UHGV virus genome: UHGV-0259485
Source of the DNA: a virus
DNA length: 28,703 nucleotides
Strand: one strand, 5' to 3'
Below the pieces are notes generated by a model. It did no database searches, was not told the DNA's origin, and was given only the letters and a program-made list of their open reading frames with translations. Made by a program: the position numbers and the translations under genes. Shown one piece after another: positions 1,747-28,202 of this stretch (position 1 is the stretch's first letter; each line of letters starts with the position of its first letter).

Positions 1747-1809
1747 GTCGTTAATTCCTATGCGTGGTTTTACGATACCGAAGCCCTGACTGTTCCCGCA
1801 GTTGGGGCT

Positions 1810-1950
1810 TCAACTTTTTAGGCTGCGAATAAGACGCTGCACTATTTCTGAATTTAAAGACCTGCCCTCCTCCTTAGCCTTTTCCTTCAATTTTTCTTTA
1901 ATCTCTGGCGGGATACGAATCCCTAATGGAGCGATGTCTCTAACTTTCAT
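1810..1950 (-). CDS. arc: Arc-like ribbon-helix-helix repressor (46 aa)
   Basis: Below ORF-track size cutoff. Hand translation MKVRDIAPLGIRIPPEIKEKLKEKAKEEGRSLNSEIVQRLIRSLKS with RHH pattern (LGIRIP...GRSLNSEIV); AAGGGG RBS; directly upstream of ant. Confidence 0.6.
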   Translation of the reverse strand: MKVRDIAPLGIRIPPEIKEKLKEKAKEEGRSLNSEIVQRLIRSLKS

Positions 1951-1963
1951 TTCCCCTTGCTTG

Positions 1964-2033
1964 CTACACCGTGATAACTAAATACTACACCGTGTTTATT
2001 TAAAGTCAAAATTTTTTTGCCTACACTGTGTAG
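1964..2033. promoter_or_regulatory. Divergent arc-ant / mnt promoter-operator region with repeated CTACAC half-sites
   Basis: CTACACCGTG at 1964-1973 and 1985-1994 (21-bp spacing); near-palindrome CTACACTGTGTAG at 2021-2033; located between divergent RHH genes. Confidence 0.4.
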
Positions 2034-2058
2034 CTATGCACAGCGTGCAGGAGGAGAA

Positions 2059-2298
2059 ATGAAAGGTGCAAGAGATATCAGTCCATTGGGGATTAGGATT
2101 CCAGACTATTTAAAGAAACGCATTCAGCAAGAAGCGGATAAAAACGGCAGATCAATGAACTCAGAGATCGTGCTTATCCTTCAAAAACATGTTGATAATC
2201 TTGATGGCTCTCGCTCACTTGAAGGATTCGCTAACCAAGAAGCTGATAAATTCAAAGAGGCGCTACTTGAGACGCTAAAGACCATGTATGGTAAATAA
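2059..2298 (+). CDS. mnt: Mnt-like ribbon-helix-helix repressor (start refined to ATG 2059)
   Basis: GGAGGA RBS before ATG at 2059; ISPLGIRIPDYLKKRIQQEADKNGRSMNSEIVLIL resembles P22 Mnt/Arc RHH; opposite strand to arc-ant as in P22. Confidence 0.65.
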   Translation: MKGARDISPLGIRIPDYLKKRIQQEADKNGRSMNSEIVLILQKHVDNLDGSRSLEGFANQEADKFKEALLETLKTMYGK

Positions 2299-2550
2299 TT
2301 ATTCAGGATGTGCCGATGTCTGATCGTAAGTACAAAAACCCTCAAGTGAATCTGAGGCTTCCTGTAGAGATAAAGGAACGTCTTATTGAACTGGCTGAGG
2401 CTAATTCTCGTTCATTAAATGCTGAGATGGTCGCGGCACTTGAAGCGTGGACAGAAAAAAATAAACACATTCAAGCACTAGACCTTGCAACTATAGCATC
2501 ACGATTGATAGATCTTGAACACGATGTTGAGACGCTAAAGACCATGTATG
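2267..2550 (+). repeat. Pair of identical 24-bp direct repeats (2267-2290 and 2527-2550) at the 3' ends of the two mnt-like genes
   Basis: TTGAGACGCTAAAGACCATGTATG occurs twice; both encode the C-terminal ETLKTMY tail. Confidence 0.8.
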
Positions 2551-2567
2551 CTAAGGATGAAAAATAA
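2316..2567 (+). CDS. Second Mnt-like RHH protein (paralog), translationally coupled to downstream gene
   Basis: AGGA RBS 7 nt before ATG at 2316; PQVNLRLPVEIKERLIELAEANSRSLNAEMV RHH motif; stop overlaps next ATG (TAATG at 2565-2569). Confidence 0.6.
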   Translation: MSDRKYKNPQVNLRLPVEIKERLIELAEANSRSLNAEMVAALEAWTEKNKHIQALDLATIASRLIDLEHDVETLKTMYAKDEK

Positions 2568-22132: not shown

Positions 22133-22348
22133 TTACTCTCCCCGCGCCGCCTTACGCCGGTCCTCTCTGATTTTGAAATACAGGTTAGTCAGATATGTCA
22201 GCAGCCCAAACAGCAGACTCCCCAGCACGCCTATTGCCGCCCACTGAGACGGGGAAACCCTGTCCAGCAACTGCAGGAACCAGTAGCCCGTTCCCACCGC
22301 TGACGTGGTGTATGACACACCTGTTGTGATTTTTTCCATCTGGTACAT
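22133..22348 (-). CDS. Class II holin, S21-like pinholin (71 aa)
   Basis: Dual-start motif (Met1/Met4), two TM segments, C-terminal [15 protein letters not shown] matches phage 21 S. Confidence 0.85.
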
Positions 22349-25026: not shown

Positions 25027-25208
25027 GAATCCTCCCGGCCGGGATAATATTGTGAGTAAAATAAGGAGCGGGCTGAAGTCCGGAAGTTACAGGACAATGG
25101 CAGAAGAGAGACGACAGCCCGCAATTCGAAAAAGACCGCGCAGTTGCGCAGCCTTATGAATTCTGGTTAAAATCCATTCGATTATAAAAATGTATATCTC
25201 ATGCTGTT

Positions 25209-25234
25209 GCCCGAACCCACTCGGGCTTTTTTTT
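25209..25234 (+). terminator. Plus-strand terminator-like hairpin with no plus-strand gene upstream
   Basis: GCCCGA-ACCCAC-TCGGGC followed by T8; a second GC-rich hairpin (GCCCCTC-CGGA-GAGGGGC) at 25247-25264. Confidence 0.45.
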
Positions 25235-25479
25235 GCCCACAAGAAAGCCCCTCCGGAGAGGGGCTAAAGCCGCGTATCTGTATCATCATGCACATGATGC
25301 CGGGTGCCTCCCGGTGAGTTCAGTATCAGCACCTGAACCCGCACAGAAAGGATAAGGGTCGGTGACAAAACACCAGTTGCTGATTGCCCCTCCGCACAGG
25401 GGGATTCACCATGCCAGTTTCTTTTAACAAACTCCCCGCAAAACAGACAACTGTCAACCGTCTGAATTGTGAGACATTT

Positions 25480-25503
25480 AAAAAAAAGCCCGCAAAAGCG
25501 AGC
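25480..25503 (-). terminator. Rho-independent terminator just downstream of the tRNA cluster
   Basis: Minus-strand RNA GCUCGC-UUUU-GCGGGC (one G-U pair) followed by U8; 16 bp after tRNA-Arg 3' end. Confidence 0.65.
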
Positions 25504-25518
25504 CGGGAAAAATAAGTC

Positions 25519-25595
25519 TGGCGCGTTGTACTGGATTCGAACCAGTGACCGATTGCTTAGAAGGCAATTGCTCTGTCCGGCTGAGCTAATAACGC
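25519..25595 (-). tRNA. tRNA-Arg (anticodon UCU)
   Basis: Hand-folded cloverleaf: anticodon loop CTTCTAA, T-loop GGTTCGAATCC, encoded CCA; one A-C mismatch in acceptor stem. Third of the cluster, like argO in Stx phages. Confidence 0.75.
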
Positions 25596-25608
25596 AGGGT
25601 ACAGATAA

Positions 25609-25685
25609 TGGACCGCCATCGAGGACTCGAACCCCGCGCAACCAGCTTCGAAGGCTGGCGCTCTATCCTGATGAGCTAATGGCGG
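25609..25685 (-). tRNA. tRNA-Arg (anticodon UCG)
   Basis: Hand-folded cloverleaf: 7-bp acceptor stem, anticodon loop CTTCGAA, T-loop GGTTCGAGTCC, encoded CCA; unusual C1-G72. Middle gene, like argN. Confidence 0.7.
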
Positions 25686-25692
25686 TATGTGA

Positions 25693-25768
25693 TGGTGGCC
25701 CTTGCTGGATTTGAACCAGCGACCTGGCGATTATGAATCGCTCGCTCTCACCACTGAGCTAAAGGGCC
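25693..25768 (-). tRNA. tRNA-Ile2 (anticodon CAU, lysidine type) or tRNA-Met
   Basis: GGCCCTTTAGCTCAGTGGTGAGAGCGAGCGATTCATAATCGCC...CCA closely resembles E. coli ileX; anticodon loop TTCATAA. First of the cluster, like ileZ. Confidence 0.75.
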
Positions 25769-25796: not shown

Positions 25797-26510
25797 TCAA
25801 TAATCAAGCCCTTGCCTGGATACATATCTGTCTGGCGGGAAGCCATAATAGCGGTGAAATACAGAAATAAAGTAGGACCTGCTTGAATAACCGCATTTTT
25901 CTGCTATAGCCTGTCCATATCCATGCCGGGAACATAACATATTTACAGCAACACGCATCCGCTCTTCCAGCAACAAGCGACTGAACATGCCCCCTTCATT
26001 TTTCAGTTTTGTCTTTAACAAACTCTCACTCATATGCAACTGTAGAGCAATCGCACCAAGCGTCCAGCTTGCTGATATATCTGTCTGAATTATCGCCCTG
26101 ACTTTGGCACTTATGCTGGATAAACATCCACTTAAAAACAATGACATCCGTTCATCTGTTTCAAACAGAGACAGGCAGGCCATCATAAGAAACATATCCG
26201 TGGCCTCTCCGGAAAATCCCTGGCTGGTAATTAAAGCCGCAGCCAACGCAGGATTGTTGGGTTCCAGCAACAGGTAAAGCGGAATGTCAGTCAGACGAGT
26301 CCTCGTCAGCTTATGCTGACTTTCCAGATATTGACTTACGACGGATTCGCTTATATCGACAATTTTAACTTTGCCATAATGCATAAGGAAAAGCTCCCTG
26401 ATGCATTTGGTGGCCAGAACAACTGAGCCTGGCTTAAGTGACAACGTATCCTTTTCAAGAAAAATATTAATTGGGGAGCAAACCATGATAACTGAACAGA
26501 CAACAGCCAT
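25797..26510 (-). CDS. AraC-family transcriptional regulator (237 aa), prophage cargo
   Basis: C-terminal AraC-type double HTH (SESLLKTKLKNEGGMFSRLLLEERMRVA...GYSSRSYFISVFHRYYGFPPDRY); AT-rich gene; weak RBS. Confidence 0.75.
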   Translation of the reverse strand: MAVVCSVIMVCSPINIFLEKDTLSLKPGSVVLATKCIRELFLMHYGKVKIVDISESVVSQYLESQHKLTRTRLTDIPLYLLLEPNNPALAAALITSQGFSGEATDMFLMMACLSLFETDERMSLFLSGCLSSISAKVRAIIQTDISASWTLGAIALQLHMSESLLKTKLKNEGGMFSRLLLEERMRVAVNMLCSRHGYGQAIAEKCGYSSRSYFISVFHRYYGFPPDRYVSRQGLDY

Positions 26511-26842: not shown

Positions 26843-26966
26843 GTCTTTTTACCCTTTCCGGTTAACGTGACATACCAATAACTCTTGTCTAAAAAGCCAG
26901 CAAGATAAAAAGCCAGTATTCACGACCACCAGCGTGTTTACTGTACTGCACCAAGTTTACAGGTAC

Positions 26967-26988
26967 AAAAAACCCGCTCAGTGGCGGG
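26967..26988 (-). terminator. Rho-independent terminator downstream of the 205-aa cargo gene (tR'-like position)
   Basis: Minus-strand RNA CCCGCC-ACUGA-GCGGG followed by U6; ~130 bp after the gene's stop. Confidence 0.6.
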
Positions 26989-27120
26989 TTTAAGTTGTGT
27001 GGCGAAGTAACCACTCTTAACACACTAATAGCATTTTTGTTATAACACAAGTAGCTCATTCAGTATTTTTAGAATCTTGACTTTCTTAAGCACGGCGAAC
27101 TCTGAATACCAAACATAAAA

Positions 27121-27738
27121 TCAATTATCTTCCAGGCCGGATGCTATCAACGAAAGCCTCTCAAAAAACGCTGTAGCAGCCTTGTCCAAAGTTGAATAAG
27201 TACTGTATTCTCCGTGTTCGGGACCAACCACTACCCATGGTCGTCTTTTTGGGATTCGGGACTTCTCAGAAATCACTGTTCCAGATATACCAATATCAAT
27301 TGTTACACCTGTTATTATTTTCTCTTCATCTCTTTCCCTGAACTCAATTGCCATAAATGCCGTTTTTTTTCGTTTCCCGTTTTTAAAAAAATCAAATAAA
27401 GCAAAGCGATGCTCATTAAAATCAACACCCCATCGTCCTTCAGGATAAAGGGCATGAAAGTTGTCATTTACGCTCTGCATCGTCTCATAAGCTTTAACTT
27501 CTAAATCTCCATAGTGCATAGATACCGCGCAGGAGTCACTGGGTAACTGTATTTTCCCAAGATTGAAAACCTTTACTGCTCCAGAACTATGGCATCTTGC
27601 CCGCAATTTATCCCCATTTATACTAATCGGAGAAATATTCCTTAATGTTCCGGGCTGGCTCCCTCCTAAGTAAACGACTGTTAAAGATTGCTTATTTTCA
27701 ATTGCATCAACTAATACATGCTCTACATTTTTATCCAT
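27121..27738 (-). CDS. Hypothetical protein (205 aa from ATG 27738), AT-rich cargo gene directly downstream of Q
   Basis: GGGAGG RBS 5 nt before ATG at 27738; MDKNVEHVLVDAIENKQSLTVVYLGGSQPGTLRNISPISI...; no family recognised; base composition visibly more AT-rich than the structural genes. Confidence 0.6.
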   Translation of the reverse strand: MDKNVEHVLVDAIENKQSLTVVYLGGSQPGTLRNISPISINGDKLRARCHSSGAVKVFNLGKIQLPSDSCAVSMHYGDLEVKAYETMQSVNDNFHALYPEGRWGVDFNEHRFALFDFFKNGKRKKTAFMAIEFRERDEEKIITGVTIDIGISGTVISEKSRIPKRRPWVVVGPEHGEYSTYSTLDKAATAFFERLSLIASGLEDN

Positions 27739-27813
27739 AATAACCTCCCAATGAACAGGTATCATCAGGAGGTTATAATAAAATATGATTATTTACTTTG
27801 ATTGAATTTATTA

Positions 27814-28185
27814 CTATATGTAACAATCAATTTCTAAAGATACCCCCAACATTGCCAGACAACCGTCAATAAACCCTTCAGCTTTCTGCAGTCTGATAAC
27901 AACCTGATTAAGTGATATCCCCAGTTTTACCCCCAACACCCGTAATGTAACCCCATACACATAATACATTTCCAGTAATTCGTATTGATACGGTTCCTTT
28001 TTCTTAAGAACTGTCATCGCAGAGCTAATGATCAGGCCATCGTCATCGCTACATTGCGGGCGGGATTTTACTTTCGAAGGAATTAATCCCTTAAAACCTG
28101 CAGCAACAGATGACCATTCCACATCCTCGTGATTATTTGCCACCCATGCCCCCCAACGTTCAAGAACCATTTGAATATCACGCAT
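27814..28185 (-). CDS. Q: Late-gene antiterminator Q (QuuD / phage 82-type)
   Basis: MRDIQMVLERWGAWVANNHEDVEWSSVAAGFKGLIPSKVKSRPQC... matches recalled E. coli QuuD-type Q; track ORF extends 5 codons further upstream. Confidence 0.8.
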   Translation of the reverse strand: MRDIQMVLERWGAWVANNHEDVEWSSVAAGFKGLIPSKVKSRPQCSDDDGLIISSAMTVLKKKEPYQYELLEMYYVYGVTLRVLGVKLGISLNQVVIRLQKAEGFIDGCLAMLGVSLEIDCYI

Positions 28186-28202
28186 CAACTTTCTCCACAA
28201 AA

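Follow-up and report, generated by a model that had tools for sequence, protein, structure and literature searches.

Introduction

The RNAs bound by Hfq in O157 Sakai were mapped in 2014 by Tree et al., who described a dyad of small RNAs (sRNAs) at the moron site (PMC4104026). In O157, Hfq binds the anti-sRNAs AsxR, AgvB and EcOnc03, which measure 51-60 nt: ~42 nt at the 3' end are conserved, and the 14-18 nt at the 5' end vary. Their 5' ends were mapped by 5' RACE to a homologous CGAU (PMC4104026). The AsxR gene is found 282 bp beyond the 3' end of stx2AB and lies on the other strand; AsxR destabilises FnrS, by which chuS is de-repressed, and AgvB blocks GcvB (PMC4104026). No target of EcOnc03 is reported in the literature examined on these sRNAs. 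EcOnc27, the partner of AsxR, appears on Northern blots as bands of ~235 and 247 nt (PMC4104026 Table S2). A review, in its passages on these RNAs, terms the pairs "dyads" and identifies EcOnc27 with sRNA103, the overexpression of which raises fimZ (PMC7873438); as summarised in a citing paper, sRNA103/EcOnc27 raises both the fimZ and the espA transcripts. In recent papers EcOnc27 is taken to be the same as STnc100, to which PasD of EPEC, an RNA of Hfq-dependent stability with many RIL-seq partners, is in turn related; the STnc100 homologues depend on Hfq and measure about 235-247 nt. Zhu et al. 2026 suggested that stx was repeatedly lost next to related sRNA loci.

We have analysed a locus of this kind in a stretch of 28,703 nucleotides, UHGV virus genome UHGV-0259485, which at its full length is called the window below. 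A preliminary description, made from the letters alone, had read the DNA between its late tRNA genes and nanS-p as an empty toxin slot. Our comparisons indicate that this gap is very probably a convergent pair of Hfq-type prophage sRNA genes, of the kind borne by lambdoid prophages of E. coli, and not an empty toxin site. Since the dyad at the moron site was published in 2014, the architecture of the locus was already described and the advance is incremental: what is new in the window is, as judged by alignment, the allele of the short RNA.

Results

Organization of the late region

Prophages with 100% identity to the window occur in human isolates, e.g. FDAARGOS_144, SCU-172 and 582. Its late region runs from Q through three tRNA genes, a gap of 492 bp (25027-25518) and nanS-p to the holin gene, on the minus strand throughout (Table 1), which bears out the earlier recognition of this order as the late-region framework of Stx phages. 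The tRNA cassette (25519-25768) gives Rfam tRNA matches of 56-72 bits and is 93% identical to its counterpart in Stx2 phages; its CAT tRNA is named tRNA-Ile by PGAP in an identical prophage. The minus-strand terminator that had been noted after the tRNAs is present, and base-level alignment shows both this hairpin and the run of T residues behind it to be conserved in Stx2a and Stx2d phages, in which the stx2 promoter region lies immediately downstream. Between Q and the tRNAs there are extra morons, one for a YdeO/GadX-like AraC regulator and the other a 214-aa ORF. On the other side of the gap, the nanS-p-like ORF is preceded by a Shine-Dalgarno sequence (GGAGG at 25030-25036) and followed by a DUF826 protein and then by the holin. 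The gap itself is left blank by PGAP and most phage records, so that it is time and again described afresh as "empty" or "structured".

Table 1. Coordinates of the features of the late region, in window positions.
Feature	Position	Strand	Evidence or detail
P21-type holin gene	22133-22348	-
nanS-p-like 9-O-acetyl sialic acid esterase gene, 653 aa	23065-25026	-	Pfam DUF1737, SASA, DUF6645
Putative promoter of the anti-sRNA gene	-35 TTGCGC 25144-25149; -10 TAAAAT 25168-25173; predicted start C25179	+	18-nt spacer
Anti-sRNA gene, predicted ~53-56 nt	25179-25234	+	RF02703 AsxR, 63.0 bits (borderline), E=6.8e-08
Anti-sRNA terminator	stem 25209-25226, then U8 (T8 in DNA)	+	consensus scan
STnc100-family sRNA gene	25235-25471 (probable start); Rfam match 25235-25443	-	RF02076, 131.7 bits
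Intrinsic terminator of the STnc100-family gene	25265-25246	-	8 pairs, 6 G-C, then TTCTTGT
Cargo (moron) junction, unoccupied	25477-25484	.	blastn breakpoints 25476 and 25481
Intrinsic terminator of the tRNA cassette	25504-25487, T8 to 25479	-	7-bp stem, directly after the tRNAs
tRNA-Arg(TCT)	25519-25595	-	ARAGORN
tRNA-Arg(TCG)	25609-25685	-	ARAGORN
tRNA-Met/Ile(CAT), tRNA-Ile2, ileZ-like	25693-25768	-	ARAGORN
Promoter-like site of the tRNA cassette	25807-25779	-	TTGATT-17-TATTAT
Q	27814-28200	-	Pfam Phage_antitermQ, E=1.5e-47

The block between the tRNAs and nanS-p in Stx2 phages

The preliminary description had placed stxAB between the tRNAs and nanS-p in Stx phages, and annotation and alignment confirm this position for stx2AB in Stx2 phages. 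Aligned with blastn, both the Stx2a and the Stx2d phage are homologous to the window from nanS-p to 25476, and homology resumes at 25481 on the tRNA side. Between these two stx2-flanking breakpoints each Stx2 phage holds 1,335 bp, which comprise the stx2 promoter and stx2AB. The annotated Stx2d phage reads tRNAs, stx2A, stx2B, a 470-bp homologue of 25027-25476 and yjhS/nanS-p, and in the base-level alignment the sequence that follows stx2B rejoins the window at ..TGTCTCACAATTCAG. A homologous sRNA block of ~450 bp is kept between stx2B and nanS-p in the Stx2a and Stx2d phages; downstream of stx2B, the Stx2a phage has an STnc100 match of 206.9 bits and an AsxR match of 88.1 bits arranged as in the window, and STnc100 comes 75 nt after stx2B in the Stx2 phage. 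The reading of the ~490 bp as an empty toxin slot does not survive this comparison: as the homologue of the gap is present in Stx phages too, the 490 bp are a module, and the slot proper amounts to no more than a few bases, at a flush junction. The toxin genes are, on the evidence of these alignments, cargo upstream of the dyad and do not replace it.

In the window, Q, the tRNAs, nanS-p and the holin are present, with no stxAB between PR'/tRNAs and the dyad. Searches for a Stx ORF or remnant across the window, by tblastn with Stx2A/B and by blastn with the stx2 and stx1 cassettes, returned only chance-level matches, in line with the absence of a toxin ORF noted earlier.

A long minus-strand RNA of the STnc100 family

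The tRNA-proximal part of the gap matches the Rfam STnc100 model over its full length (model positions 1-206 of 206, E=4.7e-29, with a score of 131.7 bits against a threshold of 47). The GC-rich hairpin listed in the preliminary description is indeed there, and its role is now that of a minus-strand terminator, corresponding to the terminal hairpin of the Rfam model. The U-run of this terminator is interrupted (UUUCUUGU) and no recognisable -35 is found in the window for this gene; together, these two features make its expression level uncertain. A -10-like TTAAAT lies at 25482-25477 and is followed by CTCACAATTCAG. This motif opens the conserved block whatever the cargo upstream, as seen by comparing loci in which the block is preceded by the tRNA terminator, stx1, stx2, TerB or TolA-C; in the Stx2a phage it reads TGTAAT. 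From the conserved -10-like motif and the Northern sizes of the homologue EcOnc27, transcription probably starts near 25471, giving an RNA of ~234 nt (range ~210-235). With a start at 25471, the Rfam model would miss the first ~28 nt. We also considered the conserved TTGACA at 25458-25453 as a candidate -35 element, although a usable -10 is missing at a spacing of 16-18 nt and some loci do not keep the motif.

The central part of the gene (25331-25385) is hypervariable between loci. In 15 loci with the window allele of the short RNA, these central 55 nt are 16-100% identical, and at least 7 unrelated central sequences occur in the sample. As a separate observation, EPEC E2348/69, a strain with existing RIL-seq data, has an unrelated convergent RNA at the homologous site, and ISEc13 interrupts its copy of STnc100.

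A short plus-strand RNA of the AsxR/AgvB/EcOnc03 family

The preliminary description had also reported a plus-strand terminator-like hairpin with no gene to terminate. The hairpin stands, and the absence of a gene does not, for it ends an anti-sRNA gene of the AsxR family, of sequence CGAUUAUAAAAAUGUAUAUCUCAUGCUGUUGCCCGAACCCACUCGGGCUUUUU. Its score with the AsxR model RF02703, over 25179-25231, falls exactly at the threshold of 63 and is borderline; with the AgvB model RF02702 it reaches 43.4 bits, below the threshold of 56. Because the AsxR score is borderline, we compared the RNA directly with the published ones (PMC4104026 Fig. S4). It is identical to AsxR at 47 of 53 positions, including the first seven nucleotides, CGAUUAU, and to the conserved 3' part of EcOnc03 at 36 of 37. 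Four of the six differences from AsxR are located within the 5' 16 nt. The variable 5' region (25179-25196, CGAUUAUAAAAAUGUAUA) differs from those of AsxR, AgvB and EcOnc03, with a 9-mer, AUAAAAAUG, common to the window RNA and the 5' end of EcOnc03.

The arrangement TTGCGC, ~18 nt, TAAAAT, 5-7 nt, CGAU is found upstream of all four alleles (at least 120 loci), and a conserved palindrome, GCGCAGTTGCGC, overlaps the -35 element. The promoter and the start at C25179 given in Table 1 are predicted from this pattern. Across 15 distinct loci with the window allele, the anti-sRNA together with its promoter is at least 95-98% identical and the anti-sRNA itself at least 98%; the neighbouring DNA of the same loci falls to 16-80% identity. 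The core of the anti-sRNA lies 166-176 bp from nanS-p in nearly all the nanS-p-holding loci among the matches listed. A stable anti-sRNA beside a variable STnc100 centre indicates that the two genes recombine independently, each with its own variable cassette.

The window RNA thereby combines a borderline score at the model threshold, the conserved 3' region with its terminator, a variable 5' region and the predicted length with the position typical of the family, convergent to a longer sRNA and between the moron site downstream of PR' and a conserved phage ORF, here the nanS-p-like gene that bounds the pair. We conclude from its sequence that it belongs to the anti-sRNA family without being AsxR in the functional sense, and it is a fourth, uncharacterised allele, distinct from the three published ones.

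Two genes, an insulator or small proteins

The 3' ends of the two sRNA genes abut at 25234/25235 without overlap. The earlier suggestion that the gap may encode a small RNA can thus be extended to two, on the basis of homology, and with two Rfam families matching (E=4.7e-29 and, for the borderline AsxR match, E=6.8e-08) the gap is no longer anonymous structured DNA. Thermodynamic fold z-scores are modest, -1.5 and -2.0. By consensus scan, terminator-like sites number 5 in 1.2 kb, compared with 1.7 ± 1.3 in shuffles.

The hairpins could conceivably form only a bidirectional terminator or insulator that stops tRNA and moron transcription from entering the lysis genes in the lysogen, with no trans-acting RNA, given that three terminators are packed into 300 bp and that only 12 nt separate the two that stand tail to tail. 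However, such an insulator would leave unexplained the conserved promoter and the 100%-conserved 53-nt body that precede the plus-strand terminator, the full-length match to a structured RNA family of 206 nt and the abundant Hfq-bound RNAs at the homologous O157 sites (PMC4104026). We regard it as very unlikely as the sole explanation; shielding of nanS-p and the lysis genes is plausible as an added role, compatible with the sRNA pair.

That the gap encodes small proteins is hardly credible. ORFs of 37-51 aa do exist on both strands, at 25087-25242(-), 25326-25457(-), 25384-25515(+) and elsewhere, and two phage records annotate a "hypothetical protein" under the match, but homologues of the gap block differ by indels of 1, 2, 4, 5 and 14 nt. 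As these are not multiples of three, no reading frame is kept and the block is non-coding, and conservation tracks the promoter, hairpins and terminators, not codons. What the analysis shows for the two convergent sRNA genes is their homology and position, a conserved promoter, the terminators and the lack of a coding signal.

Predicted pairing of the short RNA

We computed the pairing of the four alleles with the host sRNAs FnrS and GcvB. AgvB was the best of the four on GcvB (-19.9 kcal/mol, z=-2.1) and AsxR the best on FnrS, with a duplex of -10.4 kcal/mol at the terminator loop, although as a positive control this AsxR-FnrS pair reached only z=-1.35. The window allele performed no better than shuffled seeds on GcvB (-8.3 kcal/mol, z=-0.6) or on whole FnrS (-5.0 kcal/mol, z=+0.6), and it lacks CACAACA, the AgvB mimic of the GcvB target consensus. 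With such a modest z for the control, an 18-nt A/U-rich seed cannot be given a target from energy alone.

The short RNA might nevertheless be a true AsxR orthologue that sponges FnrS and de-represses chuS as in Sp5, as its best Rfam match is AsxR and it has the AsxR identity and CGAUUAU start described above. Against this, the differences from AsxR concentrate in the 5' 16 nt, and one of them, U8A, breaks the duplex of 11 bp that nt 1-11 of AsxR are predicted to form with the loop of the FnrS terminator. On the FnrS terminator fragment AsxR gave -8.5 kcal/mol and the window allele -5.0, in the range of the unrelated AgvB (-4.8) and EcOnc03 (-5.8); on whole FnrS its energy is likewise less than half that of AsxR. 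The window allele also occurs without stx2 linkage among the matches listed. We consider this orthology unlikely. Instead, the divergent 5' end of the window allele makes it probable that its target is an RNA other than FnrS or GcvB.

Pairing between the two members of the dyad was examined as well and discarded: the window pair, at -6.9 kcal/mol, was no better than non-cognate pairs (8 loci), and a single anti-sRNA allele occurs together with at least 4 different STnc100 centres.

Distribution of the alleles and occupancy of the cargo junction

When IMG/VR was scanned for exact copies of the conserved 3' part of the anti-sRNA, at least 120 loci were retrieved. At least 59 loci have the AgvB-type allele, with various junctions and no stx among the matches listed. 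At least 25 loci have the window-type allele, also without stx among the matches listed. Among at least 21 loci of EcOnc03 type, at least 5 carry a Stx1-type toxin and at least 14 have the tRNAs directly adjacent, i.e. an empty junction. The AsxR-type allele was found in at least 15 loci, or 16 with the reference phage L001, and stx2AB is present in 16/16 among the matches listed. Within the 25 window-type loci listed, the junction is empty in 5, as in the window; a TerB-domain gene occupies it in 3, and 5 carry a TolA C-terminal lipoprotein gene, which replaces the tRNA-Arg(TCT) gene too. One locus (L103) has a short insert, another (L034) a partial duplication of the STnc100 block, and in the others the contig ends too soon or no tRNA cluster is close by.

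The full window allele is present in 175 of 5,426 complete E. coli genomes (~3%), many of which come from human isolates that bear no O157 label. In O157 genomes, the match to the window anti-sRNA is confined to the 40 nt of its conserved 3' part. An exact-pattern scan of one genome per species matched only an 888-bp "Xanthomonas pisi" contig, which is probably contamination and uninformative as to the spread over species.

Over these phages, the junction holds stx1, a TerB-domain gene or nothing. Both junction edges are common to loci with TerB cargo or nothing, those with stx1 share the sRNA-side edge, and those with the TolA-C lipoprotein gene share that edge only; in TerB-cargo loci the breakpoints fall at window 25481-25484 on both sides. 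A 100-nt probe of the junction is intact in 184/5,426 complete E. coli genomes, and in many other E. coli genomes it splits at query positions 46-48 (window 25481-25483).

These data bear on the possibility that the prophage derives from a Stx phage that lost stxAB, the gap being what the deletion left. The flanks are those of Stx2 phages, recombination between the tRNA terminator and the TTAAAT..CTCACAATTCAG block could have removed the toxin genes cleanly, and the repeated stx loss suggested by Zhu et al. 2026 near related sRNA loci would provide a precedent. Yet the window has no stx remnant and its junction is flush; linkage to stx is 16/16 for AsxR-allele loci vs 0/25 for window-allele loci, among the matches listed; the same junction is found with unrelated cargo or nothing across three anti-sRNA alleles, and intact and empty in the 184 complete genomes. 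Descent from a stx-bearing phage is not favoured because identity to Stx2 phages amounts to no more than 76-83% over the allele and its flanks. We judge a post-deletion scar quite unlikely. As the junction bears no scar and is known in several cargo states, its empty state may be either ancestral or derived.

Discussion

The convergent sRNA pair lends itself to a simple scheme. Three separate transcription units would operate in the lysogen, namely the tRNA cassette and each of the two sRNA genes, all with a terminator of their own, and by homology both sRNAs would be made from their own promoters, independently of Q. The variable 5' 18 nt of the short RNA may pair with a host sRNA on Hfq and titrate or destabilise it, as a sponge does. 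The long RNA may act in trans on mRNAs through its variable centre, as EcOnc27/sRNA103 and PasD lead one to expect. Upon induction, polymerase modified by Q would ignore the three terminators and continue into nanS-p and the lysis genes. The function of both RNAs, that is, their expression, Hfq binding and targets, is proposed here by analogy with these relatives.

As a tentative proposal, which we hold to be possible and somewhat short of an even chance, the short RNA represents a fourth specificity class, defined by CGAUUAUAAAAAUGUAUA, that sponges an sRNA other than FnrS and GcvB; non-toxigenic prophages would in this manner rewire core Hfq networks outside EHEC, and the dyad would be a two-cassette system in which the anti-sRNA 5' end and the STnc100 centre are swapped independently. 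Should a new host sRNA prove to be sponged by this allele, prophages would control core regulatory RNAs in strains not labelled EHEC as well as in EHEC. Both genes of the gap can now be named by homology, which corrects the annotation, and the stx cargo is placed to within a few bases relative to flanks that also take other morons, which helps trace the gain and loss of stx.

Compared with AsxR (EcOnc02, Sp5/933W), the window anti-sRNA has the same family and strand relation, lies likewise ~170 nt upstream of nanS-p and converges with an STnc100-type sRNA; promoter, CGAUUAU start and terminator are the same. Unlike AsxR, it carries four substitutions in the 5' targeting region, with loss of the predicted FnrS pairing, is not linked to stx2AB among the matches listed and has a 3' part closer to EcOnc03. 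With EcOnc03 (Sp9) and AgvB (EcOnc01; Sp10/Sp17) it shares the gene module and the conserved 3' region, whereas its 5' region is a different sequence. The long RNA resembles EcOnc27 (Sakai), which is sRNA103 (EDL933), and the PasD1/PasD2 relatives by its full-length match, 5' hairpin and 3' domain, and as in Stx2 phages it is situated 75 nt downstream of the upstream gene. Its central 55-70 nt, in contrast to those of the Stx2-phage STnc100, belong to another sequence class, with 18% identity there, and its terminator is of the AgvB/Stx2d type. Finally, module order and junction sequences are those of the Stx-converting late region (Q, PR', tRNAs, stxAB, dyad, nanS-p, S-R-Rz), from which the window differs in that its cargo site is unoccupied.

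Variability of the sRNA pair next to the cargo junction

The convergent sRNA genes that lie beside the cargo junction, the site that holds stx2AB in Stx2 phages, proved variable in several respects. In the STnc100-family gene, conserved 5' and 3' domains enclose a centre of 55-70 nt (window 25331-25385, minus strand) that constitutes a swappable cassette: among the 120 loci listed (L005-L124) we found at least seven unrelated central sequences, and at least four were linked to the window-type anti-sRNA among the loci listed. In two IMG/VR loci, L045 and L055, part of the STnc100 block is duplicated in tandem, with two copies of the homologue of window 25238-25484; in both, the duplication adjoins a TerB-domain gene that occupies the cargo junction.

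A Stx2d phage (L002) and EPEC E2348/69 (L127) have, in place of the AsxR-family gene, a convergent hairpin followed by a T-run (GCCCGCG..CGCGGGC T7) that is unrelated to it and may represent another short sRNA occupying that site; the STnc100 copy of EPEC E2348/69 is interrupted by ISEc13. In the window, the palindrome GCGCAGTTGCGC (25139-25150, plus strand) overlaps the -35 element of the anti-sRNA promoter; kept in all four anti-sRNA alleles, this palindrome may serve as a binding site for a protein. Among species-representative genomes, the sole match to the anti-sRNA pattern was L125 (NZ_JPLE01000080.1), an 888-bp contig labelled Xanthomonas pisi, which most likely reflects contamination of that assembly by E. 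coli or phage DNA.

Accessory genes of the late region and an immI-like module

An ORF of 214 aa, which had no match in Pfam or NCBIfam and is labelled WYL-domain protein by PGAP in some genomes, lies between Q and a stretch (26962-27022) matching DNA upstream of stx1 and upstream of the tRNAs in Stx phages. In this position the extra gene would part Q from its late promoter. Closer to the tRNAs, the AraC-family moron was aligned end to end by the YdeO model; the score, 108 bits, falls far short of the equivalog cut-off. GadX was matched as well. We presume that the moron resembles the GAD acid-resistance regulators encoded by EHEC prophages (PsrA/PatE).

Elsewhere in the window, a match to the P22 sar antisense RNA abuts the start of an Ant-like ORF, and two small ORFs adjoin. 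The arrangement resembles that of an immI (ant/sar) module of the P22 type, here within a lambdoid prophage, with putative roles for the ORFs.

Coordinates of the features (window positions unless a locus is named)
Feature	Position	Strand	Remarks
P22 sar antisense RNA match	1748-1815	+	RF00262, full-length, 84.6 bits
Ant-like ORF, 307 aa	823-1746	-	putative function
Small ORF near sar match	2017-2298	+	
Small ORF near sar match	2310-2567	+	
AraC-family moron	25797-26510	-	between PR' and tRNAs
tR'-like terminator	26933-26912	-	
214-aa ORF	27121-27765	-	between Q and stretch matching Stx-phage DNA
STnc100 duplication and TerB-domain gene	L045 596-2580		oriented coordinates
Replacement hairpin and T-run	L002 4100-4230		
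Replacement hairpin and T-run	L127 1640-1760
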